NCBI GenBank assembly: GCA_964519305.1
Contig: CAZFHY010000001.1
Coordinates: forward strand, 186,132 to 250,131
Direction of reading: 5' to 3'
DNA: 64,000 bases
From: Candidatus Undinarchaeota archaeon
GTDB lineage: Archaea > SpSt-1190 > JASMDC01
Position numbers and translations under genes: made by a program. The notes below the pieces were generated by a model. It was given only the letters and a program-made list of their open reading frames with translations, searched no databases and was not told the DNA's origin. Every line of letters starts with the position of its first letter. Positions within the stretch are counted from its first letter, which is position 1. Shown one piece after another: positions 6,313 through 30,149 of the stretch.

Positions 6313-6427
6313 GTTGGCGGCCATAGCGGAGGGGTAACACCCGGTCCCATCTCGAACCCGGAAGTAAAGTCCTCCCGCGTTCCGTGTGGTACTGCCGTAA
6401 TGGTGGGAAGCCCGGACCGCCGCCAAC
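6313..6427 (+). rRNA. rrf: 5S ribosomal RNA (stand-alone)
   Basis: GGCGGCCATAGCGG.GGG..ACACCCGGTCCCATCTCGAACCCGGAAGT.AAG archaeal 5S consensus. Terminal helix GTTGGCGGC/GCCGCCAAC. Confidence 0.95.
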
Positions 6428-6429
6428 AC

Positions 6430-16234: not shown

Positions 16235-16250
16235 GCGAAACGTTTAAAAA
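16235..16250 (+). promoter_or_regulatory. BRE/TATA promoter of the ATP-grasp operon
   Basis: GCGAAACG-TTTAAAAA in the divergent intergenic region. Confidence 0.55.
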
Positions 16251-16310: not shown

Positions 16311-17321
16311 GTGCCCATCCGCTCATCGGCACTCTCGGAGGGTGCCACGATAGGCGGCTGGCGCGACCTGTTGGACAAGCTCACCGGGTTCGAGCCCGAT
16401 GACGAGTCCATCAAGGTGCTCTATCACGACAACATCGACAACTCCATGAACAACTCGCTCGGCCGTTATTTCGATGAAGCGGTCAACTCCATGGACGGTG
16501 TACGCGGCGCACATGCGAAGTTCCCCAAGCATTATGGCGGCAGTGGTCACGTCAAGCAGAAGATCCGTAAGGAGCTTGGCGGCGATCCCGACGTTATCAT
16601 CAACTTCATGGCCGGGCCTCCCTCGGGCATCCTGCGCGAGTTCGAGGACAACGGCACCCTCGTTCTCAACGATCCGGACATGTACCCGGTCACCGGGAGC
16701 AAGGTGCGAACCCAGCAGCTGCTTGAACAGGCCAATGTACCCGTTGCCGAGACGGTAATCCCTCATTCTTACGATGATATCCGTGAGTTCTGCGACCGTG
16801 TCGAGGGCCCCTACGTGCTCAAACCGTCCAATGGTTTCGGCGGTAAGGGCGTTCGCAAGGTGGACACCGCTGAGGAGGCTCTCAAACAGGTGAACCTGGG
16901 CACTGACATCGTTCAGGAGGACGTGTTCAAGTACTGGCCGCACCAGAGCTACCGGGATATCCGGGCATATGTGGTGGGCGACCAGTGCATAGGCGCCATG
17001 TACCGCGTCAACGACGACTGGATCACTAACATCCATAACGGTGGCCATGGGGAGAAGGTCCCAGACGATGCGTACCAGAAGGTCGCCGAACTTGCGGTCG
17101 ATGCTGTGAAGGCCATGGGTGACGGCTTGCACTTCTCCGGCGTGGACATCCTGGAGCGGTACGATAAGGACGGCAACGTCGAATACGTCGTGCTGGAACT
17201 GAATTCCGCCCCTGGTGGCTTCTACAACCTCGAGCGCAGCACCGGTCATGGCAGGGACGCTGTGCGCCAGATCGTCGAGTACTCAGTGGAGCTGGAGAAA
17301 GAGCTCCACAGGGAGGGCTGA
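16311..17321 (+). CDS. RimK-family ATP-grasp amide ligase
   Basis: P.VLKP..GFGGKGV, IVQE, RDIRAYVVG, W.TNIHNGG, FSGVDIL and VLELNSAPG. Start uncertain (GTG 16311 or ATA 16350). Confidence 0.92.
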   Translation: MPIRSSALSEGATIGGWRDLLDKLTGFEPDDESIKVLYHDNIDNSMNNSLGRYFDEAVNSMDGVRGAHAKFPKHYGGSGHVKQKIRKELGGDPDVIINFMAGPPSGILREFEDNGTLVLNDPDMYPVTGSKVRTQQLLEQANVPVAETVIPHSYDDIREFCDRVEGPYVLKPSNGFGGKGVRKVDTAEEALKQVNLGTDIVQEDVFKYWPHQSYRDIRAYVVGDQCIGAMYRVNDDWITNIHNGGHGEKVPDDAYQKVAELAVDAVKAMGDGLHFSGVDILERYDKDGNVEYVVLELNSAPGGFYNLERSTGHGRDAVRQIVEYSVELEKELHREG

Positions 17322-17324
17322 ACC

Positions 17325-18605
17325 ATGTCGTGGGGCAAGCTGAACGACGGCCACACCATCGGCATGGAGAAGGAGTTCATTATCGTCGATTCCAGCGGTA
17401 ATCCTGTCGACTGCACATCGATCGAGAACGCGTGCAATGACGACCGCATCAACCATGACTACCCGTCCGCTCTCGGATTCAGTGTATGGGGCATCGAGAT
17501 CAACTCGCACCCCTACGACAACCTCACTGAGCTGAACACCGAGATGAAGGAGATGGTGACGAAGGTCCGTGACGAGGCCACCAGCCGCGGCTATAAGCTC
17601 ATGACCGCGGCACGTCATCCGGACAAGGGCGGATACATGGCCATGCACACACATGTCGGTGCTGCCGACGACCGTGAAGCGCTTTTCGTCACCAAGGCCC
17701 TTAGGGCCCATCTTCCCGAGATCATCGCGCTCGCCTCTAACTCACCGAAGAAGACCACGCTCGGTAAGTGGTGCAAGGACGGTCGCATGTACTCGACCAA
17801 CATGGGCGGTACCCAGTACGGCCGCAGCGTACCCGACGACCCGGTGGTGTACGGTGACGAGGACAGGGCCCATCGCGAGGTGCTGAGCTTCAAACGTATC
17901 CGCTGGGACGGCCGCGGTGTCGTCATCGCGGGCGAGAAGGACTCCGACCGCCTTAAGGGAACCATCGAGGTCCGCTGTCCTGATGCCCAGCTCACGGCCG
18001 AGGAGGACGTGGCCGTGGCCGCGTTCATCTGGGGCATCGCTGAGTACGCCAAGAAGGAGCTGGCCAGCAAGAACTACGACTGGTCCGAGCTCACCGAAAA
18101 AGAGCACGAGCGTGACGACCTGCAGAACCAGCTGGACCAGGTCTACCATGCCGGGATTTTCTCGGCCATGGGTCGTGGCATCCGCAAGTTCTTCGGTAAG
18201 GAGACAACGGGCGACCAACAGTACGCCCAGCTCAGTTCACAACTTGACACAGCGGACGCTTGGCTGGCCGAGAACCGTCCGTCCTACGATATCGCCATGA
18301 CCAATAAGGAGCTCATGGATAACATCGACAAGGTGGGCTACAGCGGTATGGAGGGCACGATCGCCTATTCAAGCGGCGGTCAGGATATGAAGGTGGCCGC
18401 CAAGGACTCGATAAAGGAGACATACGAGAAGATCAAGCCGGTCCTCGACGACCTCAAGATACCAGACGATGTGCGCGAGCGTCTCGAAGCACGGGTGTAC
18501 GGCGGCCGCTCCGGTGCCGACGTCCAGATCGATGCCGTGAACGACGGCGAGGACCTGACTTCCTATGTCATCGAGAAATCAACCAATATGGAGTATCTGG
18601 TGTAA
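17325..18605 (+). CDS. glutamate-cysteine ligase family 2 (YbdK-like) carboxylate-amine ligase, divergent copy 0
   Basis: TIGMEKE, GIEINS, MHTHVG, ALASNSP, GTIEVRCPD and SGAD. Has an extra helical-hairpin insertion. Confidence 0.85.
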   Translation: MSWGKLNDGHTIGMEKEFIIVDSSGNPVDCTSIENACNDDRINHDYPSALGFSVWGIEINSHPYDNLTELNTEMKEMVTKVRDEATSRGYKLMTAARHPDKGGYMAMHTHVGAADDREALFVTKALRAHLPEIIALASNSPKKTTLGKWCKDGRMYSTNMGGTQYGRSVPDDPVVYGDEDRAHREVLSFKRIRWDGRGVVIAGEKDSDRLKGTIEVRCPDAQLTAEEDVAVAAFIWGIAEYAKKELASKNYDWSELTEKEHERDDLQNQLDQVYHAGIFSAMGRGIRKFFGKETTGDQQYAQLSSQLDTADAWLAENRPSYDIAMTNKELMDNIDKVGYSGMEGTIAYSSGGQDMKVAAKDSIKETYEKIKPVLDDLKIPDDVRERLEARVYGGRSGADVQIDAVNDGEDLTSYVIEKSTNMEYLV

Positions 18606-18607
18606 TC

Positions 18608-19867
18608 ATGATCGAGTACAGTGATACGGACAGGGACATCCTCGACTGCCACGTCCACATGGGGTGGGACGCCCCGGACGGTGTCGAGACACTGACCGCA
18701 CCGTACACATGGGAAAACATGGCCGAGGTCCAGGCCAAGCTCGGGTACGACCACGCCAAGGAGAAACAGGCACAGCGGAGCCTGACACCCGAGGAGATCA
18801 TCGAGGCCATGGACGCGGGCTACGGGCCGCAGAGCCAGTGCAACGTGTTCCCGTTCAACGAGGGCGACCGGAACGTGCCGGACCCCAACGGAGTCCTCAT
18901 CCCATTCCACTATGCCAACGACCGAGTGCTGTGGGCGGCCAACGAGTACGAAGGTCGGTTCCATCCGTTCTGCCGTGTGGATCCCAACGGGACGGGCTCG
19001 GAAGGACCCTACGCCGCGGTGTACGAGGTAGTACGGTGCCGTCTGGAAGGCGCCGAGGGGCTCAAGCTCCATCCCAGGGCGCAGAAGTTCGCCGCCGACT
19101 CGGACGAGGCCGCTACCGTGGCACGCGTGGCGGGTGCCCTTGGTATGCCAGTTCTCCTCCACTCTCAGGCCAGACCCGACCTAATCGAGCAGGATAATCC
19201 GGAGGACGTCATCATGTGCGAGCCCTACCGCATGGGCAAGCTCGCAGAGAAGGCGCCGGACACCACGATCATCATCGGTCACTCCGGTTGCGGTGGGAGC
19301 TCCCGTGTCGTTTCGGCGAGGGCACGCACCGCTGCAGTTACCCAGGCGGCTGATGTCGCAGCATCTCATGAGAACGTATACCTCGACCTTTCTATCACCA
19401 TGCCGTTCTCTCTGGAGGATAATGAGGTGGAGAAGCCCGAGGACGTCGGGAAGTACACCCTCGGCCTCACTGACATAATCCTTTCACGGCACCAGGAGTA
19501 CGAGGGGCGCATACTCTTCGGCTCCGACCTGCCCTTCGCCAAGATGAGCTCGTCCCTGCGCACATACGAACGCGTGGCCGGTAGATACGGCATCGCCGGT
19601 GACGAGGACGGTGCGATCAAGGCGGGCACAATGGAGTCGCTGTTCGCGCCGATGGAGGATACCCCGGTCCAGGAGATCGCAGGCATCGTCCGTGACTACA
19701 TCGAACAGCACGAGCCGTTCTGGAACCGCAGGGCCAAGCAGCTGTCCCGCGAGCTAGAGCAGGTCGCCACGGTCGAGGAGCTCGAAGGCGCGCTCTACAA
19801 CTATGTTCAGGACACGGGAAAGGCCGAGGACCTACCGGGCGGGCAGCCGGTACCGGTCAAGGCATAG
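18608..19867 (+). CDS. metal-dependent TIM-barrel amidohydrolase (Amidohydro_2)
   Basis: DCHVH, PFCRVDP, GLKLHP, PVLLHS, IIGHSG, NVYLD.S and LFGSDLPF. Confidence 0.9.
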   Translation: MIEYSDTDRDILDCHVHMGWDAPDGVETLTAPYTWENMAEVQAKLGYDHAKEKQAQRSLTPEEIIEAMDAGYGPQSQCNVFPFNEGDRNVPDPNGVLIPFHYANDRVLWAANEYEGRFHPFCRVDPNGTGSEGPYAAVYEVVRCRLEGAEGLKLHPRAQKFAADSDEAATVARVAGALGMPVLLHSQARPDLIEQDNPEDVIMCEPYRMGKLAEKAPDTTIIIGHSGCGGSSRVVSARARTAAVTQAADVAASHENVYLDLSITMPFSLEDNEVEKPEDVGKYTLGLTDIILSRHQEYEGRILFGSDLPFAKMSSSLRTYERVAGRYGIAGDEDGAIKAGTMESLFAPMEDTPVQEIAGIVRDYIEQHEPFWNRRAKQLSRELEQVATVEELEGALYNYVQDTGKAEDLPGGQPVPVKA

Positions 19868-19873
19868 CGTCCC

Positions 19874-20371
19874 TTACGGGATCGACGGCTCGCACCATTT
19901 GTACGAGTCAACGCACTTGAGCATGTTTCTATCCGTGCCCGGAGGACAACCACCATCGGGTTCGAGTAGGTAGCCGCCCTGCTCCATGGACCCCACCGAG
20001 CTCTCGCAGCAGCTGGAGCCCTTACATTGGTCCCTGAGCTGCTGGTAGTAGGTTGCCGGGGAGGCTGACACTGCGCTTCCTGCTGGTGACGAGGGACCTG
20101 GTTCACACCATTTGTACGAATCCTCGCACCTGAGCATGTTCCCGTTCGTGCCCACAGGACACCCGTTGGACGGAGATAGCGTTGCATTGGTACTGTACAT
20201 CGAGTCAACGGATGCCAGGCAGCAGCTAGAGCCCTTGCACTGATCCGCAAGCTGCTTGTAGTAGGGGGGAAGGTTCGTTGTGGAGGCTCCTCCGGAAGGT
20301 CCGGAGGAGAGGCACCCCGCCACTAGGGCGAGCAGGAGCATCAGGCCTACGATGCGGTGCTGTGTGACCAT
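19874..20371 (-). CDS. Cys-rich lipoprotein with two tandem 6-Cys domains
   Basis: Lipobox LVAGC. Two copies of YY.QL.DQCKGSSCC.SSV.SM...GCP.GT..NML.C.DSYKWCEP. Confidence 0.8.
   Translation of the reverse strand: MVTQHRIVGLMLLLALVAGCLSSGPSGGASTTNLPPYYKQLADQCKGSSCCLASVDSMYSTNATLSPSNGCPVGTNGNMLRCEDSYKWCEPGPSSPAGSAVSASPATYYQQLRDQCKGSSCCESSVGSMEQGGYLLEPDGGCPPGTDRNMLKCVDSYKWCEPSIP
19886..20263 (-). repeat. internal duplication, period 213 bp
   Basis: Repeat starts at 20263 and 20050 on the minus strand. CACCATTTGTACGA is shared at DNA level. Confidence 0.85.
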
Positions 20372-20418
20372 CGAAATCGTAGGACAAGGCAACAATAAAA
20401 GGCTTAGGGCAGGGCAGC

Positions 20419-21240
20419 TCAGTGGAAGATACTGGAGAGGAAACCGGCTACGGAGGAGCCACTCTTATCAGGATCAGGCTGCTGCATGTCCAGGTCGTAC
20501 AGGTCAAGCTTCATGTCGTTGGGGAGGTCGCGTTCTTGCCTGACGGACACCTCGTCGAACTCGTCGCTGCCGGTCCGCCGGTTCACCTCGACGCCACCAT
20601 ACCAGTCCTCATCGCCATCACAGCGGACGTGATATCCGCCGGACCGGACCACTGCAGCGCTCTCGATGAAGTGCTTCCCGTTAGCTACCAAGAACTGCAG
20701 GTCGAGGTCCTCGACATCCTTACCCGACAGTTCGTAGCACGAGTGGTCATAGCAGATCTCCAGCCCCATAGAGAGCCCCCGGTGCTCGAGCACACCTCGA
20801 CTCTTCTCAGCTTCATATTGAAGACCATGCTGCTCGGCGACCCAGTTCTCCCCGTTCGCGGGATTCTGCTTGTCGTAGGAGTAGATGATCTCGCCCTTGT
20901 GGAACACGGGGAGGGTGTTGTGGAGCTTGCCTGCCTCCTGCCAGACGTAGGTGCCCGGGAGAAGGAGGGTATCAGGGTGTTCCTCAGAGATCTCGCGCAT
21001 CTGCTCGAGTCGCTCGTCCTTCTCATCGCGCGTGAGGGGCACGTTGGGGAAGAAAGCGTACTCGGAACCCACGAGGACGTCCGGATTCGCCTCCAAGGCC
21101 GCAGATATCGTGTCCTGGTACGCGTCCATGAAGGACTCGTTACGTGGGCTATAACGATCGAACGGTACGTCACCCTGGATGAGACCGACAGTGATGTGGT
21201 CAGGTCGATCATCACCCGTCACATCTTCAAGGGTGTACAC
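20419..21240 (-). CDS. carbon-nitrogen hydrolase (nitrilase superfamily), copy 1
   Basis: Glu-Lys-Cys triad: GSEY, YDKQ, GLEICYDH. Confidence 0.87.
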   Translation of the reverse strand: MYTLEDVTGDDRPDHITVGLIQGDVPFDRYSPRNESFMDAYQDTISAALEANPDVLVGSEYAFFPNVPLTRDEKDERLEQMREISEEHPDTLLLPGTYVWQEAGKLHNTLPVFHKGEIIYSYDKQNPANGENWVAEQHGLQYEAEKSRGVLEHRGLSMGLEICYDHSCYELSGKDVEDLDLQFLVANGKHFIESAAVVRSGGYHVRCDGDEDWYGGVEVNRRTGSDEFDEVSVRQERDLPNDMKLDLYDLDMQQPDPDKSGSSVAGFLSSIFH

Positions 21241-21338
21241 GGTCCGTCACGTCCTCCGGCCAAAAGGCCATAAAGGTCGATTGATATACTTTCCCTTGCG
21301 GACCATCGGCCCACGTTCTCAAGTGGACTGGGTGAGTA

Positions 21339-22106
21339 TCACGCTATGTCCAGTTCGTAGAGGTCGAGCTTCATGTCATGGGGGAGCTCGCTCACGCGTC
21401 CGGGCTCGACGATATCGTACAAGTAAGAACCGACACACTTGCGCACCTCGACACCATGGTAGCAGGAGCTGTCGCTGCCATCGACTCGAAGATGGTATCC
21501 TCCCTCCCTGACCATCGTGGCCGTATCGATGAATTCCTTTCCGTTGGCAACCAGCACCTGAAGGTCGAGGTCCCTGACACCCTTGTCCCGCAGCGTATGT
21601 GCTGAGTGGTCGTAGCAGATCTCCATCCCCATGGAAAGACCTTGGTAGTCGATGACACCTTCGCTCTTCTCGGCGGTGTAAACCAAATTGTGGTCGCTCT
21701 CCATCCAGCGCTCGGCGTTGGCCGGGTTCTGCTTCTCATAGGTGAACACCAGCTCGCCCTTGTGGAACACGGGGAGGGTATTGTGCAGCTTGCCCTCCTC
21801 CTTCCAAATGTAAGTGCCGGGCAAGAGTAGAGTGTCCGGATGCTCCGCTGATAGCTGGCGCATCACATCGAACCGCTCATCACGCTCCTCGCGGGTGAGT
21901 GGCTGACGGGGGAAGAAGACGTACTCGGCGCCTACGAGAATGTCGGGCTCGGTCTCCAGGGCCGTTCCGATGGCGTCCTGATAGTTGTCCATGACGGTCT
22001 CGTCCCGGGCCCCACTGCTGGAGAACGGTACGTCAGCGTCGAGGAGGCCGACCGTTAGATGGTCGGGCCGTTCATCAGCGGACTCGAGCTCGTACATCGA
22101 TCGCAA
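21339..22106 (-). CDS. carbon-nitrogen hydrolase (nitrilase superfamily), copy 2
   Basis: GAEY, YEKQ, GMEICYDH. Close paralog of copy 1 (shared HPDTLLLPGTY.W...GKLHNTLPVFHKGE). Confidence 0.87.
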   Translation of the reverse strand: MRSMYELESADERPDHLTVGLLDADVPFSSSGARDETVMDNYQDAIGTALETEPDILVGAEYVFFPRQPLTREERDERFDVMRQLSAEHPDTLLLPGTYIWKEEGKLHNTLPVFHKGELVFTYEKQNPANAERWMESDHNLVYTAEKSEGVIDYQGLSMGMEICYDHSAHTLRDKGVRDLDLQVLVANGKEFIDTATMVREGGYHLRVDGSDSSCYHGVEVRKCVGSYLYDIVEPGRVSELPHDMKLDLYELDIA

Positions 22107-22180
22107 CGCTCCTAATCCACGACACCTGAGGCCCGCCTAATAAACATTCCCTTGTGGGATCGCGAGGGTGGAAAAAGCAC

Positions 22181-23251
22181 CTACTCGCGGTGCGCGATGC
22201 GTTCGTACAGCTCCGGCCCGAACAGGTCGTCCTTCTTACCGAAGAACCGCTTCACCCGCGGCCACCAACCGTCGAGTCCCTTTTCCTGCTCCACTTCGCG
22301 GTAGATGTCGAGCACATCGTCCGCCCCGGAGCGACGTCGCTCCACCTTGTCCTCTAGGGTCGCGAGGACGTCCGCGGGGCAGTCGTAGCGTTCGAGGTAT
22401 GGCTTGATCGTCTCGAGGGTCTCTGTCGCCAACTGGTACGCGGGGACCTCTTCTCCGTTCACCTTGAACACGGCCGCCATGCCCTTCTTGATAGCCTTGT
22501 TCCTGTTCTTCACCAGCTCTTTCTGCAGTACCTTGTAAGAGCTGCTGACATGGTACAGGATGCCCGCCTCGGGAGGCTCCTCGACAAGGGCGTGGTACTC
22601 CTCCTTGGCCTTCTCGGCGATACCGAATATGTAGGCGGCGATGGCCGCGTCCTCCACGGCCGTCCCCTGCGAGTCCATGCACCGCGCCTCGATGGTTCCC
22701 GACCTCTTCTGGATCACCGAGCTGCTGGAGGTGCTGTAGTACTGCGTAATCTCGTGGCCGTACCAGCTCTTGATCAAGCGTACATCCTTGATCCTCCCGC
22801 TCCGGACCGGGGAGTTGGCCGAGAGGGCCAGGATGTCGGGAACGTGGCGCTGGAGCGCGTAGAACACGTAGCGGGCCTCCTCCTCATCGGCATATCCGAC
22901 ATGGACATGGAGCCCTGCCTTGTCACGTGACTGTCCCGGGCGTATACCCATACCCAAGGCGTAGCAGTTGTTGTCGTCGGCCTCCTCCTGGGCTATGCGG
23001 TAGGCGGTTGTTATGTCGTCGGTGAGCTGTCGCAGGTCCGTGCAGGGACGGGTGACCACCTCTAAGGGCCCCGAACCGTCCTCGTAGCACTTGGGACCCA
23101 CGGAGACGTCGTAGGCGTCCATTTCCGCTTGCATTCGGTCGACCACGGTGCGCTCTAGGGTTGACTGGATGGAAGTGCCACCGTACCTGTCGACCACATA
23201 GAACTCCTTCTCGAGACCCACGGAGTGGCCCTCATTGAGAACCTCGGTCAT
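22181..23251 (-). CDS. GCS2/YbdK-like carboxylate-amine ligase, copy A
   Basis: NEGHSVGLEKEFY, GPLEV, AGLHVHVG, ALSANSP, TIEARCMD, RSGADD. Start MTEVLNEG chosen by alignment to the paralogs. Confidence 0.87.
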   Translation of the reverse strand: MTEVLNEGHSVGLEKEFYVVDRYGGTSIQSTLERTVVDRMQAEMDAYDVSVGPKCYEDGSGPLEVVTRPCTDLRQLTDDITTAYRIAQEEADDNNCYALGMGIRPGQSRDKAGLHVHVGYADEEEARYVFYALQRHVPDILALSANSPVRSGRIKDVRLIKSWYGHEITQYYSTSSSSVIQKRSGTIEARCMDSQGTAVEDAAIAAYIFGIAEKAKEEYHALVEEPPEAGILYHVSSSYKVLQKELVKNRNKAIKKGMAAVFKVNGEEVPAYQLATETLETIKPYLERYDCPADVLATLEDKVERRRSGADDVLDIYREVEQEKGLDGWWPRVKRFFGKKDDLFGPELYERIAHRE

Positions 23252-23255
23252 TCTC

Positions 23256-24305
23256 TTAGGACCCCCCGTCATCCCGGTGTGCGAGCCGTTCGATGAGCCG
23301 TTCCTTCGTTCGCCAGGGATGGAAGAACGCGCTAACGCGCTCCTTGAACCCTTTTGGGGCCATCTCCTGGTAGATGTCGAGGATGTCGTCCGCTCCGGAC
23401 CGCTTGTTCTCTACCTTGTCCTCCAGAGCAGAAAGGACCTCCTCGGGGCACTGGTACTGCTCGATGTAAGGCCGGACCTCTGCGAGTGTATCGGTAACTA
23501 TCTGGTGTGCAGGGACTTCTCCGTCCCCTACAGTGAACGTAGCTTTCATCCCGTCCTCAATCGCGTTGTAGAAGTTATCCTCGCTCTCGACCGGTACTTC
23601 ATGCACGGAGCAACCGTTGACAAAGTCCTCCTTGGCCTTCTCGGCGATACCGAGGATGTAGGCGGCGATCGCCGCGTCCTCCACTGCGCTCGCCTGGCTG
23701 TCCATGAACCGCAGTTCCAGTGTGTTCTCGCGAACGTAGATGACCGAGTGGCGTGATGTGTCTTCAAAGGGATCGAACTGTTGACCGAACCTGACCATGA
23801 AGAGGCCGTCCAGACCGCGTGCGTCCATGCGCATGTCCTTGACCTTACCGTCGTACGAGGGAGAGTTGGTGGACAAAGCCATGATGTCCGGGACGTGCGC
23901 CTGTAACGCCTGGAACACGTAGCGGGCCTCTTCCTTGTCGGCGAAACCGATGTGCACGTGCAGCCCTGCCATGTCGTATGGTTTGCCTGGCCGGGTACCC
24001 ATCCCAAGAGCGTACCAGCCGTGAGCTTCTGCTTCCTCTTGGGCTATCGTGTAGGCGGTCGTGACATCGTCGGTGAGCTGTTGCAGGTCCGTGCAGGGGC
24101 GGGTGGTCACCTCAACAGGACCTGTGGTATCGTGATATGCTTTCGGGCCGACGACCGAGTCGTAGGCGTCCATCTCCTCGCGCATGCGCTCCTCTACAGC
24201 AGGAACTATCTCGTATCCCCGACTACTGCTACCGTGGCCATTGACCACGTAGAACTCCTTCTCCACGCCCACGGTGTGGCCGTCGTTGAAGGTGGGAGCG
24301 AGCAT
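23256..24305 (-). CDS. GCS2/YbdK-like carboxylate-amine ligase, copy B
   Basis: GHTVGVEKEFY, GPVEV, AGLHVHIG, ALSTNSP, TLELRFMD. Confidence 0.87.
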   Translation of the reverse strand: MLAPTFNDGHTVGVEKEFYVVNGHGSSSRGYEIVPAVEERMREEMDAYDSVVGPKAYHDTTGPVEVTTRPCTDLQQLTDDVTTAYTIAQEEAEAHGWYALGMGTRPGKPYDMAGLHVHIGFADKEEARYVFQALQAHVPDIMALSTNSPSYDGKVKDMRMDARGLDGLFMVRFGQQFDPFEDTSRHSVIYVRENTLELRFMDSQASAVEDAAIAAYILGIAEKAKEDFVNGCSVHEVPVESEDNFYNAIEDGMKATFTVGDGEVPAHQIVTDTLAEVRPYIEQYQCPEEVLSALEDKVENKRSGADDILDIYQEMAPKGFKERVSAFFHPWRTKERLIERLAHRDDGGS

Positions 24306-24308
24306 CCT

Positions 24309-25373
24309 TCAGGCACCCCCGCTGTTAGCCTGCTCGCGTTCCTGCGCCTTCCACTCACGCTGGTGGGCAAGGTCGCTGTAGAGCGCCTTCTTCCTGCTCC
24401 AGAATGTGAAAGGAGTAGCGAGCGTCTGCAGTAAGCCCTGTGGTCGGTGCTCGGAATAGATATCGAGGATGTCGTCGGCTCCCGAGCGTCCGCGTACGAT
24501 CTTGTCCGCTAGTATACCGATTATCTCCTCCGGACAGTCGTACTTCTGAAGGTAGGGGAGGATCGACACGAAGGTGTCCTGAGCGACGTCCTGCACCGGC
24601 CGCGTTTCATCACTGTATGTGAACTTCGCTGCCATACCGTCCTTGATCGCCTGTTCATGGTTCTTGATCTCGTCGCCGAACCGGTCAGAAACGCCTTCGC
24701 CGTTCGCGTAATCGACCTTGGCCTTCTCGGCGATGCCTAGGATATAGGCCGCGATCGCTGCATCCTCTTCTGCTGTTCCCTGTGAGTCCATGCAGCGTAC
24801 TTCCAGTGTATTGCCGCGTTTCTTGATGACCGAGTCGTTGCTGGTCGTGCTGAAGGGGGAATAACGTTGGCCATACGAACGGTTGGCTGCTCGCATGTCC
24901 TTGATGGAACCGTCCTTGTTGGGCGAGTTCGCCGATAGTGCCATGATCTCGGGTACGTGATGCTTGAGAACAGTGAATACGTACTCCGCCTCTGCCTCGT
25001 CACTGTAGCCCACATGGACGTGGAGCCCGGCCTTGTCGTTAGGTATCCCAGGGCGGGTCCCCATCCCAAGAGCGTACTTACCACGAGCCTCCACTACTTC
25101 TTGCGCGATGTCGTAGGCAGTCGTGATATCGTTCGTGAGCTGGTTGAGGTCCGTGCAGGGGCGGGTAACTACTTCCATAGGACCGGATGCATCGAGATAA
25201 GCTTTCGGACCTACATCGTCATCGTATGCACCCATCTCCTCACGCATACGGATCCCTATACTGGATGCGATATCCATCTCATCCCGAAGGTGGAGATAGC
25301 CGTTGCGTCCGTGGTTCACAATGTAGAACTCCTTCTCGAGCCCTACCGAGTGTCCCTCGTTGACGATATCCAT
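24309..25373 (-). CDS. GCS2/YbdK-like carboxylate-amine ligase, copy C
   Basis: GHSVGLEKEFY, GPMEV, AGLHVHVG, ALSANSP, TLEVRCMD. Confidence 0.87.
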   Translation of the reverse strand: MDIVNEGHSVGLEKEFYIVNHGRNGYLHLRDEMDIASSIGIRMREEMGAYDDDVGPKAYLDASGPMEVVTRPCTDLNQLTNDITTAYDIAQEVVEARGKYALGMGTRPGIPNDKAGLHVHVGYSDEAEAEYVFTVLKHHVPEIMALSANSPNKDGSIKDMRAANRSYGQRYSPFSTTSNDSVIKKRGNTLEVRCMDSQGTAEEDAAIAAYILGIAEKAKVDYANGEGVSDRFGDEIKNHEQAIKDGMAAKFTYSDETRPVQDVAQDTFVSILPYLQKYDCPEEIIGILADKIVRGRSGADDILDIYSEHRPQGLLQTLATPFTFWSRKKALYSDLAHQREWKAQEREQANSGGA

Positions 25374-25404
25374 GTTGCTACTGAAAAGTGGTGATAGCTC
25401 GGCC

Positions 25405-25414
25405 TATATTTAAA
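25405..25414 (-). promoter_or_regulatory. TATA box upstream of copy C (likely drives C-B-A)
   Basis: TTTAAATATA on the minus strand, ~32 nt upstream of the ATG. Confidence 0.6.
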
Positions 25415-25482
25415 CGTTGCGTTTACGGTGTGCGGTTTTGACCCACAATCAGTGGAACGGTCCGGAACGGTCGTTCGTGAGG

Positions 25483-26595
25483 TCAGGCCGCTGCTAGCAT
25501 AGGGCGCATCGGGATGAAATCCTCGGGCTCTTCCTTGAACTCGTCGCGGTAGGCAAGGTGCTTTATGAGACGCTCCTTCTGCCCTTCCTTTCGCCTGAAC
25601 GGAGCGATGAGCCTCGAAAGGAATCCTTGGGGGAGTTCCTCCTTGTAGATGTCAAGGATGTCATCAGCACCCGAACGCCTGCCGTCGATCTTTGATTCGA
25701 GCACGTCGAGCACATTCTTGGGACACTTGTACTGCTTAAGGTAGGGCATGATCTCCTCGAAGGTATCCCCCACTATCTGGTAGGCCTTGACCTTCTCGCC
25801 GTCGACCTTGAAGTTAGCCTTCATGCCATTTCTGAGGGCGCGGTCGAAGTTCCGCTCCTCCTGCTTCCCCACATCAGCGATGGGGACGCCATTGGCATAA
25901 TCCTCCTTGGCCTTCTCAGCGATGCCGAATATGTAGGCTCCGATGGCCGCATCCTCTTCACCCGATCCCTGCGAGTCCATGCACCGCACCTCGATGGTAT
26001 GCTCGCGCACGTATATCACCGAGTGGCGACTGGTGTTCCAGTAGGGGGAGAAGTCATGTCCCCAGCGTGACTGGAGCCCGATCAAGTTCTCCTCGATCCA
26101 TCCGCCGACGCCGCCGGTCTGGCGCATGTCCTTGACGGTGCCGTAATCGTTCGGCGAGTTGGCGGAGAGAGCCATTATGTCCGGTACGTGCTTTTGCAGG
26201 GCGTGGAACACGTACTGCGCCTCGCCCTCGTTGGCGAATCCCACGTGGACGTGGAGCCCGGCGCAGTCGTTCGACTTCCCGGGTCGCGTCCCCATCCCCA
26301 GAGCATAGAGGCCGCGCGTATTGGCTTCCTCCTGGGCGATGTCGTAGGAGGTGGTGATATCCTTAGTGAGCTGGCGTAGGTCCTTGCATGGACGAGTAGT
26401 GATCTCTAGGGGTCCGGAGGCGTCCTCGTAGCATTTGGGGCCCCAGTGATCGTTATAGGCTCCCAGCTCGTCCTTCATGCGCCCGCCGATGCTGGCCACC
26501 ATGCTACTGTAGCTGACGTCCTCGTTATTCCCATCGACGACGTAGAACTCCTTCTCAAGGCCAACACTATGGCCATTGTTGAGGATATCTTCCAT
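25483..26595 (-). CDS. GCS2/YbdK-like carboxylate-amine ligase, copy D
   Basis: GHSVGLEKEFY, GPLEI, AGLHVHVG, ALSANSP, TIEVRCMD. Confidence 0.87.
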   Translation of the reverse strand: MEDILNNGHSVGLEKEFYVVDGNNEDVSYSSMVASIGGRMKDELGAYNDHWGPKCYEDASGPLEITTRPCKDLRQLTKDITTSYDIAQEEANTRGLYALGMGTRPGKSNDCAGLHVHVGFANEGEAQYVFHALQKHVPDIMALSANSPNDYGTVKDMRQTGGVGGWIEENLIGLQSRWGHDFSPYWNTSRHSVIYVREHTIEVRCMDSQGSGEEDAAIGAYIFGIAEKAKEDYANGVPIADVGKQEERNFDRALRNGMKANFKVDGEKVKAYQIVGDTFEEIMPYLKQYKCPKNVLDVLESKIDGRRSGADDILDIYKEELPQGFLSRLIAPFRRKEGQKERLIKHLAYRDEFKEEPEDFIPMRPMLAAA

Positions 26596-26643
26596 GTACC
26601 CAGTTCCCCTGTTGTTACCCGCTAGTGGTTGCAGGTCAGGTCC

Positions 26644-26651
26644 TATATAAA
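26644..26651 (-). promoter_or_regulatory. TATA box upstream of copy D
   Basis: TTTATATA on the minus strand, in the intergenic gap. Confidence 0.55.
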
Positions 26652-26680
26652 CATTACGAAAAAAGGGCAGCGGACAGCGT

Positions 26681-27799
26681 TCACACTGGAGATGTCACTA
26701 TGGAAGCAACGGGATCATCCTGTCGTTCCTGCTCTTCCTCGAACCGGTCACGGTACGCAAGGTGCCTGATGACTCTTTCCCTCTTGGACGGGAGGAGGAA
26801 CGGCCTTGTTAGGCAGCCCCAGATGCCGCCGACATGCTCCTCACGGTAAATGTCCATTATGTCATCTGCACCACACCGTTCAGTGACCACACGCTCCTTG
26901 AGTATATCGTTGATCTCCTTGGGGCAGTTATACTGTTCAAGATAGGGTTGTATCTCCTTGAGTGTATTAGCGACGACCTGGGAGACATGTACTTTCTTTC
27001 CATCTACCCTGAATCTCGCTCCCATACCCTTGATGACAGCGTGCTTGAAGTTACGTTTTTCTTCTTTACCGATACCGACCTGCTCGATGCCGTTGTTGTA
27101 GTCCGCTTTCGCCTTCTCCGCGATACCGAAGATGTACGCTGCGACGGCCGCGTCCTCTTCTGCGGTCCCTTGTGTGTCCATACACCGCACTTCGATCGTC
27201 TTCGTACCTTCCCGTTTGTAGATGACCGATTTTCTGCCTGTGCTCTCGAAGGGGGAGAAGAAGTGACCGTAGAAGAGAGTCTCTCCTGCTCCCAGGACAT
27301 CGAACAAATGCTTGGGTGGATTCCCGTACTGTCGCATGCACTTGACCATCCCGTCACGGGAGGGTGAGTTCGCCGATAGTGCGATAATCTCCGGCACATG
27401 CTTCTGCAGATCGTGGAACACGTAATCGGCCTCGCTGTCAGTGGCATATCCGACGTGCACGTGGAGCCCTGCCGCATCGTCGTCAGCTTCAGGTCGACTA
27501 CCCATGCCGAGGGCATAGAGATTGCTCTTCTCCGCAATCTCCTTGGTGAACCTGTAGGTCTTCGTGATATCATCGGTTAGCTGTCGGAGGTCAGAGCAGG
27601 GACGGGTGGTTATCTCCAATGGGCCTGATGCATCTACATAGCACTTGGCACCATTCTCGCTGCACAATCCGATCTCATCCCGTATGAAGTCGGAGACGGG
27701 GGATACGAAGTACATCTGGAGTTGTGGGCTGTTGGATCCGTTCACTACGTAGAACTCTTTTTCCAGCCCTATTGAATGACCCTCGTTGATGATTGGCAT
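26681..27799 (-). CDS. GCS2/YbdK-like carboxylate-amine ligase, copy E
   Basis: GHSIGLEKEFY, GPLEI, AGLHVHVG, ALSANSP, TIEVRCMD. Confidence 0.87.
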   Translation of the reverse strand: MPIINEGHSIGLEKEFYVVNGSNSPQLQMYFVSPVSDFIRDEIGLCSENGAKCYVDASGPLEITTRPCSDLRQLTDDITKTYRFTKEIAEKSNLYALGMGSRPEADDDAAGLHVHVGYATDSEADYVFHDLQKHVPEIIALSANSPSRDGMVKCMRQYGNPPKHLFDVLGAGETLFYGHFFSPFESTGRKSVIYKREGTKTIEVRCMDTQGTAEEDAAVAAYIFGIAEKAKADYNNGIEQVGIGKEEKRNFKHAVIKGMGARFRVDGKKVHVSQVVANTLKEIQPYLEQYNCPKEINDILKERVVTERCGADDIMDIYREEHVGGIWGCLTRPFLLPSKRERVIRHLAYRDRFEEEQERQDDPVASIVTSPV

Positions 27800-27832
27800 G
27801 TTGCTACTGTGCGGTGACGGCGCATGATGTCG

Positions 27833-27840
27833 TATTTATA
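27833..27840 (-). promoter_or_regulatory. TATA box upstream of copy E
   Basis: GAAATG-TATAAATA on the minus strand. Confidence 0.6.
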
Positions 27841-27915
27841 CATTTCTCCTAAATGTCGTGGAAGATAAGCCCCTAAGAGGATACGAAAACGCAAGAAGGG
27901 GCCATTATTTGCGGA

Positions 27916-28983
27916 TTATGCCGGTCGTGGATCCGCGTCCCCGGTACATGCTTCAGGCTCTTCCTCTATCTTGTCCCTGTGGGCGAGCCGGTCATAGAGC
28001 TCAGCATGGCCCCGGTGCATCGTGAAGAAGTCCTTAATTCCAGTCCATACGGTGCTATAGCCGCACTCCTTGTAGATGTCCAATATGTCGTCTGCCCCAG
28101 AGCGGTGTTCCTTTACCTTCCCCTCGAGGACGTCCATGACCTCATCGGGGCAGTCATATCGATCCAGGTAGGGGCGGACCTCGGCGAAGGTGTCCTCGAC
28201 AACGCTGTATGCAGGGACCTTCTCACCATCTATCTTGAATGTGGCCTCCATGCCCTTCTTGACAGCGTGCTTGAAGTTCTTGGGCCCTTCCTTCCCCACG
28301 AGATCCTGTCCGACACCGTTAGCGTGGTCCTCCTTGGCCTTCTCAGCGATACCGAATATGTACGCGGCGATGGCCACGTCCTCCTCCGGTGTCCCCTGGG
28401 AGTCCATGCAACGCACCTCCAGAGTGTCGCTCCGCTTGTAGATGACCGAGGTGCGGCCCGTATCCCCGTACGCGGAGAACTTGTGACCATAGTACCCACC
28501 CTTGGCGCGCGTGTCCTTGATACCTCCGAACCGCGATGGTGAATTGGCCGAGAGGGCCATGATGTCAGGTACGTGCTTTTGGAGTTCGTTGAACACGTAC
28601 TCGGCCTCGGCCTCGTCCTTGAAGCCTACGTGAACGTGTAGCCCGGCCTGGTCGCTGGGTCTACCGGGGCGTGAGCCCATCCCCAGAGCGTATAGACCAC
28701 GGTCGTCGGCCTCCTCTTGGGCGATGTTGTAGGCCGTGGTAATATCATCAGAGAGCTGCCTCAGGTCAGAACAAGGCCGGGTGACCACTTCTAAGGGTCC
28801 CGTGCAGTCCACATAGCACTTCGGGCCTCGTACATCGTTATAGGCGCCCAGCGCCTCAGTCATGCGGGGGATAACGCTATCCCTCACAGTGGACTGGTAG
28901 TAGGTGTTGTTCTCAGCGTCGACTACGTAGAACTCCTTCTCGAGCCCGACGGAGTGCCCCTCGTTAAGAATCACAGTAGACAT
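27916..28983 (-). CDS. GCS2/YbdK-like carboxylate-amine ligase, copy F
   Basis: GHSVGLEKEFY, GPLEV, AGLHVHVG, ALSANSP, TLEVRCMD. Confidence 0.87.
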   Translation of the reverse strand: MSTVILNEGHSVGLEKEFYVVDAENNTYYQSTVRDSVIPRMTEALGAYNDVRGPKCYVDCTGPLEVVTRPCSDLRQLSDDITTAYNIAQEEADDRGLYALGMGSRPGRPSDQAGLHVHVGFKDEAEAEYVFNELQKHVPDIMALSANSPSRFGGIKDTRAKGGYYGHKFSAYGDTGRTSVIYKRSDTLEVRCMDSQGTPEEDVAIAAYIFGIAEKAKEDHANGVGQDLVGKEGPKNFKHAVKKGMEATFKIDGEKVPAYSVVEDTFAEVRPYLDRYDCPDEVMDVLEGKVKEHRSGADDILDIYKECGYSTVWTGIKDFFTMHRGHAELYDRLAHRDKIEEEPEACTGDADPRPA

Positions 28984-29016: not shown

Positions 29017-29024
29017 TATTTATA
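29017..29024 (-). promoter_or_regulatory. TATA box upstream of copy F
   Basis: GGAAAGG-TATAAATA on the minus strand. Confidence 0.6.
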
Positions 29025-29045
29025 CCTTTCCCGGAAGGTGTGTCG

Positions 29046-30149
29046 TCACCCGAGCGATATGGTGAACGCCTGCTGGAAGCCCATCATGTCCTCTCGTCCA
29101 TCGGCGAGAATGTGCGGTCGGCTCCCCGCGACCTTGCCCCGGAGCATGAGTTGTACGGTGGCGTTCTCCTCGACCGGTGGTGTGAGCATGCTATAGATGA
29201 GCTTGTTTCGCAAGGTGATCACCTTGTTCTCGCCGCCCACGGTCATGTTCACCTTGTCCGTGTCCAGTTCAGCGAACGATGGCTGATACACAGCAGGGGT
29301 CTCTAGGGCGAGCTCTTTTCCCAAGGCTTCAAGTTGTCCTGCGAGCTTCGCTGTGAGGTTCTGGTCCAGGATATGTTCGAGGTCGAGGAAGAGCTGGAGG
29401 TGAAGGACCTCATCCTTCTCAGCTGGCGCCTCAGTGACGTTGGCAACACCCCTCACACCGCGGACACGTTCAATGATTTCCTGGCGCGTAAGGGTTGTGT
29501 TCTCACCCTGAGTGCCGAAGAACACAAGGCTCGGGAGACGACCTTTGATAGTCCCGCTCACGAAATAGGCTTCGGCCGGCTCAGGTGGTGTATCATCGCC
29601 ACCAGTATCGAGGAACTTGCTAAGGTCGATCTCATAGTCCTGAGGACGCGAGATCTGCTGACTGGTCGCATATACGGCTCGTCCCTCCTCGTCCTCAACG
29701 AGCTTGAACAGGTACTCCTGACCGTCCTGGAGGTTCAAGGAGACGAGCTCCTGCTCTACTTCCAGGGTAAGGGTGGCTGTCGTGTTCCCATCTGTATAGG
29801 TGATCGTGTTACCATCCTCGCTCTTGATGACCGAAGGTGCCGATGCGAATGAGAACCCGAATACATCTTCGAGGATAGTGCGTAGCTGCGGTGAGTGTTC
29901 GCCGGGCACCTTGTCCCAGTCGAAGAGGAAACGGGCGCCTTCGGGCGCTCCATCCCGACCTCCACCGCCGCTATCGAACGTTGAAAAGTAATTGAATCCC
30001 AAGGCCACGGCAGAGAGGATCATTATCCCTCCCACGAAGAACGCGAACATCTTGTCCGATGTCGTATGGCTCCGTTTGGGATCATCATGCTCCTCTACCA
30101 TCTCCAGGGCGATCTCTTCGGACCGCTTGATCTTACGCTTGCGTACCAT
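29046..30149 (-). CDS. hypothetical single-pass membrane protein
   Basis: Start MVRKRK at 30149; the longer ORF runs deep into pheT. TM segment MFAFFVGGIMILSAVALGF, then an extracellular region. Confidence 0.75.
   Translation of the reverse strand: MVRKRKIKRSEEIALEMVEEHDDPKRSHTTSDKMFAFFVGGIMILSAVALGFNYFSTFDSGGGGRDGAPEGARFLFDWDKVPGEHSPQLRTILEDVFGFSFASAPSVIKSEDGNTITYTDGNTTATLTLEVEQELVSLNLQDGQEYLFKLVEDEEGRAVYATSQQISRPQDYEIDLSKFLDTGGDDTPPEPAEAYFVSGTIKGRLPSLVFFGTQGENTTLTRQEIIERVRGVRGVANVTEAPAEKDEVLHLQLFLDLEHILDQNLTAKLAGQLEALGKELALETPAVYQPSFAELDTDKVNMTVGGENKVITLRNKLIYSMLTPPVEENATVQLMLRGKVAGSRPHILADGREDMMGFQQAFTISLG

Follow-up and report, generated by a model that had tools for sequence, protein, structure and literature searches.

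A tandem array of YbdK-fold ligases beside amidases in an archaeon of the Undinarchaeota: a possible system for the turnover of small-molecule amides

Ligases of the YbdK type, members of the GCS2 family (PF04107; structures 1r8g and 1tt4), are widespread, and to our knowledge the only reaction documented for them is the formation of gamma-Glu-Cys. The genome of a Candidatus Undinarchaeota archaeon (GenBank assembly GCA_964519305.1) encodes one RimK-like ATP-grasp ligase, seven GCS2/YbdK-fold ligases, one Amidohydro_2 hydrolase and two nitrilase-superfamily amidases, assigned from a list of open reading frames (ORFs) and Pfam, in a single block at positions 16311-28983 of the window, that is, of the whole 64,000-nt stretch analyzed (contig CAZFHY010000001.1, positions 186,132 to 250,131, forward strand). 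All eleven enzyme ORFs are uninterrupted and form two convergent arms, as an initial sequence-only reading had reported, and the unusual concentration of eight amide-forming and three C-N-cleaving enzymes to which it drew attention was confirmed. One lineage has thus multiplied a divergent YbdK branch seven-fold, with all copies under purifying selection and beside matched amidases, which makes the block a small, ready-made collection for exploring what other ligations the YbdK fold can perform: seven related enzymes share a catalytic core, while their fixed residues differ by orthogroup and candidate hydrolase partners lie alongside. Tentatively, the block is read here as serving the cytoplasmic turnover of small-molecule gamma-glutamyl-type amides, tandem duplication having given its ligases different specificities and promoters of their own.

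Several described systems resemble the block in part. With YbdK/GCS2 proteins its ligases share the fold, the Pfam match and the catalytic motifs; however, identity is ~19%, and the ligases score below the NCBIfam cut-offs, form a clade apart from E. coli YbdK and occur as a cluster of seven rather than singly or in twos. Like GshA plus GshB, or GshF (3ln7), the plus arm combines a GCS-fold ligase and an ATP-grasp protein matching GSH-S_ATP, but no equivalog threshold is reached, the ATP-grasp gene comes first, both are coupled to an Amidohydro_2 gene, and six more ligases and two amidases are present. Paralogous ligases of the glutamine synthetase (GS) superfamily with differing amine specificities, together with a product-releasing hydrolase, are known from PuuA/PuuD, the seven PauA paralogues of Pseudomonas, and GmaS; these ligases are of the GS type (PF00120), are dispersed in the genome and are accompanied by oxidoreductases and a GATase-1 hydrolase. 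The ligases of the block are instead of the GCS2 type and arranged in tandem, with nitrilase and Amidohydro_2 partners and no oxidoreductase; of the Puu/Pau set (GS-type ligase, oxidoreductase, GATase-1 hydrolase) Pfam found no member in the block. The superfold is also common to PafA and Dop, which pair a ligase and a hydrolase within one superfamily, but the fold match of T1 to these is weaker (TM 0.53-0.59), and the block has neither a Pup_ligase match nor Pup-like or proteasome genes.

Clustered systems of ATP-grasp, COOH-NH2 ligase and peptidase or amidohydrolase that would make or modify peptide-like metabolites were reportedly predicted by Iyer et al. 2009. The block resembles these clusters in that two ligase superfamilies are co-clustered with hydrolases, and it differs by the six-fold tandem expansion and the paired nitrilase-superfamily amidases. 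The exact architecture was not found described in literature searches that did not cover Iyer et al. 2009; among the matches listed for YbdK/carboxylate-amine ligases from 2015 on there is no description of tandem GCS2 arrays, and the excerpts of PMC13674229 and PMC10936187 contain nothing on the block.

The ligases and their partners

Seven of seven ligases exceed the gathering cut-off of the Pfam GCS2 family (21 bits), with scores of 36.7-48.1 bits (41.3-48.1 for the six tandem copies). The latter follow one another on the minus strand: T1 (355 aa; 27916-28983; 46.3 bits), T2 (372 aa; 26681-27799; 44.6 bits), T3 (370 aa; 25483-26595; 46.6 bits), T4 (354 aa; 24309-25373; 41.3 bits), T5 (349 aa; 23256-24305; 48.1 bits) and T6 (363 aa; 22181-23272; 46.4 bits). 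T5 starts 3 nt after T4, and T6 and T5 overlap by 17 nt. The seventh, GCS2L (426 aa; 17325-18605, plus strand; 36.7 bits), is a long YbdK-like carboxylate-amine ligase with two inserts; it is 32-35% identical to the tandem copies and retains all catalytic motifs. Residues G13/E15/E17, E58, R97, H108/H110 and E215/R217 are invariant in an alignment of the seven, which bears out the initial observation that GxExE, E, HxH, R and ExR are kept in every copy and that none is frameshifted; the acidic, His and Arg residues among them presumably have catalytic roles.

Four of the seven (GCS2L, T6, T3 and T1) were scanned with the NCBIfam models for GshA and YbdK, all of which remained below cut-off (18-79 bits versus 176-437), the best scores being 65.8-79.4 bits against the 176.4 bits of TIGR02050. 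Among sequences of the Protein Data Bank (PDB) a profile of the seven copies matches YbdK structures only. T1, the one ligase modelled, gave an AlphaFold2 (AF2) model with a pLDDT of 91.1, for which Foldseek placed YbdK (1tt4 and 1r8g) on top with TM 0.67-0.70 and E ~1e-15, followed by plant GCL (TM 0.63-0.64), PafA/Dop (ranks 7-15), GshF (3ln7 at rank 14) and glutamine synthetases, with GmaS (9qur) at rank 26. A FastTree phylogeny of 122 rows was built from the seven window copies, E. coli YbdK, the two other GCS2 proteins of the same genome, one gene of genome G023 and, out of 149 listed representatives, the 111 with a length of 280-530 aa. In it the six tandem copies form one clade with SH-like support of 100, and GCS2L groups loosely (support 87) with P0026 and a small number of further metagenomic orphans; E. 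coli YbdK lies in the opposite half of the tree. Long branches leave the deep placements of this phylogeny unsure. The ligases are YbdK-fold enzymes outside any curated GshA/YbdK equivalog, and the suspicion that they are not ordinary representatives of either is borne out by the scores of the four scanned copies and by the tree. A relationship to PafA/Dop or to the actin cross-linking domain (ACD), which had been brought up as well, is not: no block protein matches a Pup_ligase or ACD family in Pfam at E<=0.01, YbdK and plant GCL outrank PafA/Dop in Foldseek, and ACD structures are absent from the rows listed for T1 (to rank 49). Profile matches include giant proteins of 2232-3551 aa with a GCS2-like domain near the C-terminus (P0087, P0098, P0116, P0119), and kinship to ACD toxins was considered for these; Pfam recognized GCS2 and nothing else, hence no ACD, in the two that were scanned, P0087 and P0119.

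The plus arm begins with the RimK-family ATP-grasp ligase (336 aa; 16311-17321), separated by 3 nt from GCS2L, which in turn lies 2 nt ahead of the gene for the Amidohydro_2 metal-dependent hydrolase (419 aa; 18608-19867, plus strand). The ATP-grasp protein is recognized by PF08443 RimK (79.1 bits; cut-off 21) and by GSH-S_ATP (40.6 bits), but remains below the NCBIfam cut-offs of rimK_fam (130.4 versus 143.4), MptN (133.8 versus 350), LysX (111.4 versus 275.6) and CofF (72.4 versus 300); its best PDB sequence matches are alpha-L-glutamate ligases, RimK and LysX, including ribosomal protein S6 glutamate ligases. It is 93% identical in the sister species, and its family is present in 29 of the 41 genomes searched, the best match outside the genus being just 35% identical. 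The Amidohydro_2 protein scores 57.6 bits with PF04909 (cut-off 26.4) and has no PDB sequence match; its sequence shows an HxH close to the N-terminus and His and Asp residues further on, which we take, by eye, to be metal ligands. Relatives were found in 5 of the 41 genomes.

Both nitrilase-superfamily amidases are encoded on the minus strand: CNH_a (255 aa; 21339-22106) and CNH_b (273 aa; 20419-21240) are 61% identical, and their Pfam CN_hydrolase scores are borderline, 25.0 and 23.1 bits versus a cut-off of 23.2. The nitrilase fold is nevertheless accepted because an AF2 model (pLDDT 82.9) gave Foldseek probabilities of 1.00 to nitrilase-superfamily amidases at TM ~0.6 and because the triad E60-K124-C163 is invariant in seven of seven family members in the paralogue alignment. 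Nearest in fold are the aliphatic amidase of Nesterenkonia, mouse Nit2, N-carbamoylputrescine amidohydrolase, beta-ureidopropionase, yeast Nit3 and an amidase of P. horikoshii solved with glutaramide, and the glutaminase domains of NadE rank below such free-standing amidases. Judged from the model, the CNH proteins look like small-molecule amidases such as Nit2. The family occurs in 2 of the 41 genomes, both of this genus and with five loci each; a word-indexed search returned 6 proteins, and the ESM Atlas gave only clusters that are unnamed or look like CN_hydrolase or Amidohydro_2. Of the three further copies in the same genome, one adjoins a Fic protein and two form a tandem pair, next to which lie an M28/M20 peptidase, a divergent arginase-fold protein, a PfkB kinase and two weakly M14-like ORFs. 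The pair is housed in a second locus rich in C-N hydrolases (G000:C1:329806-342185; L035 covers 334000-348000), where the two M14-like ORFs belong to a run of four tandem ORFs; of the two Pfam-scanned members of this run, one gave a weak M14 carboxypeptidase match and one none.

Boxes of the pattern GTWTAWAWA, which we take from the consensus to be archaeal TATA elements, stand ~30-60 nt upstream of the start codons of T1 (29017-29025), T2 (27833-27841), T3 (26644-26652) and T4, the head of T4-T5-T6 (25407-25415), all on the minus strand, and upstream of the plus-arm operon (16242-16250, plus strand); CNH_a and CNH_b are preceded by looser versions. The window contains six matches versus 0.31 expected, five of them the block sites. 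This enrichment is partly circular, because the pattern was derived from those five sites, and only the single other match is new information.

Conservation and distribution

The gene order PheS-PheT-transmembrane (TM) protein-T1 to T6-CNH_a-CNH_b-Cys-rich ORF, convergent with Amidohydro_2-GCS2L-ATP-grasp, is kept in the sister species (G001; loci L019/L020) and in an independent metagenome contig (L041), which stops within GCS2L, short of the ATP-grasp gene; two shorter contigs are consistent with this order. Between the window's genome (G000) and the sister species, dN/dS (Nei-Gojobori) is 0.056-0.157 over 14 genes and 0.087-0.144 for T1-T6, the values for PheS and PheT being 0.06-0.08; purifying selection therefore acts on each copy. 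Within the block, conservation is highest for Amidohydro_2 (95.7% amino acid identity, dN/dS 0.056). The block is real and selected.

The tandem copies are mutually 48-60% identical and 76-88% identical to their orthologues in the sister species. Together with the genes of the latter, the 21 homologues found for T1 sort into six orthogroups corresponding to T1-T6, with the exception of P0021. This protein, which comes from a 150-kb contig of a related genome, is encoded neither in G000 nor in G001; with 48-53% identity to all six tandem copies and the motifs retained, it stands for a seventh ligase type. Of the 355 positions of T1, 98 are invariant over all orthogroups, and another 37 are constant inside every orthogroup yet differ from one to the next (26 sequences, exclusive of the partial P0007, of P0021 and of sequences identical to the window's own). 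T2 and T3 show a dS of ~1.2 versus 0.4-0.8 in neighbouring genes, possibly as a result of gene conversion, non-orthologous replacement or faster turnover. Tandem paralogue arrays are common throughout the genome, with runs of 6, 5, 5, 4 and 4 genes in a crude all-against-all comparison of 2994 long ORFs, the run of six GCS2 genes being the longest.

Nine GCS2 genes are present in the genome of the window. PF04107 found matches in 26 of 301 archaeal genomes; outside the genus these were 24 of 299, each with one or two genes, so that the copy number here is highly unusual. The two GCS2 genes of G000 that lie elsewhere (G000:C4:177336-178577 and G000:C8:81242-82507; 413 and 421 aa) are single and below the NCBIfam cut-offs; the neighbours are a U32 peptidase and a MarR-like gene in one case, and a beta-CASP nuclease and RNase HII in the other. 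Only one other genome of the 301 has two adjacent GCS2 genes (G276:C15:2353-5429; open frames of 454 and 450 aa).

A word-indexed search of 5.8 billion clusters yielded the 21 proteins for T1, none of them below 51% identity, and one for GCS2L. In an exhaustive profile search of 1.84 billion representatives, one protein scored 561 bits and the next, P0026 (30% identical to T1), 178 bits, with four at E<=1e-30; the ligase profile exceeded 280 bits only in G000 and G001 among 401 archaeal genomes, six others having single genes at 51-87 bits. Scans of genome contigs and metagenome contigs with the ligase alignment returned nothing beyond the same lineage. By these sequence searches the ligase subfamily is nearly an orphan, restricted to one genus among the genomes searched.

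The association of the ligase clade with hydrolases and ATP-grasp, which the sequence-only reading had made a point of, holds in the sister species and in L041, as far as this contig reaches, but not in the distant relatives. Five of the six single-copy genes were inspected, G316 being left out; Amidohydro_2 lies within ~3 kb in G023 and G046 only, both of one genus, and ATP-grasp or nitrilase-like genes were near none of the five. With no member of the clade found beyond a single genus, this comparison carries little information. In G023 (L034; G023:C80, 7114-12977), and also in G046:C41, a 468-aa GCS2-like gene is convergent to a series VWA - unknown - Amidohydro_2 - VWA. The genomes of G000 (3.63 Mb) and G001 (~3.8 Mb) compare with 0.6-1.2 Mb in all 15 other searched genomes of the class, and the NCBI labels of relatives alternate between Undinarchaeales and Methanopyri. 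The stretch 19874-28983 was found in eight marine or seawater DNA runs from two studies, possibly its source; the run search listed no RNA runs carrying it.

Possible functions of the block

Amide turnover is favoured because of the birth-and-death pattern of the ligases, their separate promoters and the type of the amidases. We infer the chemistry, the donor, the parallel specificities and the physiological role as follows. Each YbdK-type ligase would activate a carboxylate with ATP as acyl-phosphate and join it to an amine, as fold and invariant motifs suggest, the carboxylate most likely being, by analogy to the family, the gamma-carboxyl of glutamate. The six tandem copies would be lineage-specific duplicates that have settled into separate specificities and act side by side on various amines or amino compounds, not as a fixed assembly line; residues fixed per orthogroup and a promoter of their own for most copies are the reason for this assumption. 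The plus arm may follow a two-step logic like that of GshA/GshB, making or extending a gamma-glutamyl-type peptide, while the nitrilase-superfamily amidases and Amidohydro_2 would cleave such amides and release amine or ammonia. The role would probably lie in capturing, protecting, assimilating or recycling nitrogen compounds, in a marine heterotroph that scavenges peptides and amines. If the copies do differ in amine specificity, the block would represent a new route for nitrogen compounds in oxygen-poor marine archaea and offer a panel of biocatalysts for amide bonds.

Some points weigh against such a turnover. Glutamate as the donor is assumed from the family name, the NCBIfam models for GshA/YbdK all being below cut-off. 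Known catabolism by gamma-glutamylation requires that an oxidase or dehydrogenase act after ligation and before hydrolysis, and the routes known employ ligases of the GS type (PF00120), not GCS2. Neither an oxidase nor a dehydrogenase is present in the block according to the ORF list and Pfam; without an intervening step, ligase and amidase would amount to a futile, ATP-consuming cycle. Further, the link between amidases and peptidases stems from the paralogous locus and not from the block itself, and the promoter pattern was derived from the same intergenic regions in which it recurs, an argument that is partly circular. As no transforming step stands between ligation and hydrolysis, a rival scenario stays close, in which the ligases build a single product.

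In that scenario, which we regard as possible but doubtful, one oligo-amide or peptide (a compatible solute, a thiol-like cofactor, a cofactor tail or a wall peptide) would be made by stepwise non-ribosomal synthesis, each of the eight ligases adding one unit in the manner of Mur ligases or of GshA/GshB, and the hydrolases would trim or mature it. Eight clustered ligases of two superfamilies would suit this, as would the tight coupling of the plus arm (gaps of 2-3 nt), which resembles GshA plus GshB or the fused GshF, the translational coupling of T4-T5-T6 and the retention of the complete set of six in G000, G001 and L041; moreover, operon-linked ATP-grasp and COOH-NH2 ligases often catalyze successive ligations in peptide-derived metabolites, as stated in the excerpt of PMC4431377. 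However, the six tandem ligases are young monophyletic paralogues, most of which have their own promoter-like boxes and T-rich stops, and a family evolving by birth and death accounts for the seventh type in a related genome and the faster T2/T3 more readily than a fixed pathway does; three hydrolases would also be a large number for a biosynthetic line, and the block contains no exporter or precursor gene. Were the copies to build a single product nonetheless, they would constitute a new ligase-based peptide pathway.

Proteins or peptides as targets, with ligases adding glutamate or a peptide to side chains or termini and hydrolases removing these tags, had been the suggestion of the sequence-only reading, and we now consider it unlikely. 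PafA and Dop are significant fold matches, and the ATP-grasp protein is of the RimK family with ribosomal protein S6 glutamate ligases among its best PDB matches; the T1 model is nevertheless fitted better by YbdK and plant GCL, a Pup_ligase match at E<=0.01 is lacking, and the amidases resemble enzymes acting on small molecules. In addition, the intergenic gaps across the block do not exceed 116 nt, so that there is no space for a carrier or tag gene. Its more specific form, in which the seven ligases would be diversified isopeptide writers on protein or other macromolecular targets with nitrilase-fold and Amidohydro_2 erasers, that is, an archaeal Pup-independent conjugation on the YbdK branch, seems somewhat less probable again. 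The nitrilase-like proteins might, on the other hand, be glutaminase subunits, as in NAD+ synthetase, which feed ammonia to ligases amidating several carboxylates: their weak best matches are to glutamine-dependent NAD+ synthase (NCBIfam, E 3e-6 and 6.8e-5; PDB 5kha, E 0.087), which their paralogues match at 1.2e-7 and 1.8e-7. Yet these scores amount to 21-31 bits against a cut-off of 479, free-standing amidases outrank NadE by fold, and the only concrete target tried, corrin with its six amidations for six ligases, is excluded since the search of the 99.8%-complete genome yielded neither CobQ (TIGR00313) nor CbiC (PF02570); we therefore judge ammonia transfer of this kind to be improbable. 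Least credible of all is a battery of effectors or toxins with self-protective erasers, the other proposal made from the letters: just the multiplicity of the ligases and the presence of hydrolases would speak for it, whereas the block has no signal peptides, secretion genes or mobile-element genes and combines housekeeping surroundings and genome-like GC with conserved synteny and low dN/dS.

Surroundings and minor features

As first reported, the block lies between housekeeping genes, with PheRS alpha/beta on one side and a GT2 gene, a pseudouridine synthase gene and SRP54 on the other (Pfam), and contains no transporter, dehydrogenase or aminotransferase according to the ORF list and Pfam; mobile-element genes were likewise not among its ORFs. 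Its GC content of 0.55-0.61 is similar to that of the remainder of the window, and an N-terminal signal peptide or membrane segment is visible in none of the eleven enzymes.

The inventory of enzymes given initially was correct, but it had overlooked a Cys-rich ORF inside the block (19874-20371, also delimited as 19874-20395, minus strand), the final gene of the minus arm, which matches nothing in Pfam or NCBIfam. Its translation has a lipobox-like signal, as in lipoproteins, and two internal repeats of ~55 aa each; just one repeat (90 of 165 aa) aligns in G001 and L041. Between PheT and T1, a single-pass membrane-anchored protein of ~367 aa, whose membership in the system is uncertain, is encoded at 29046-30149 (minus strand); it shares 17 nt at its start with the end of pheT, has kept its position in G001 and L041 at 86-88% conservation, and matches no Pfam family. 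No tRNA genes were found in the window, and a 5S rRNA gene lies at 6313-6428 on the plus strand (Rfam, 84.5 bits).

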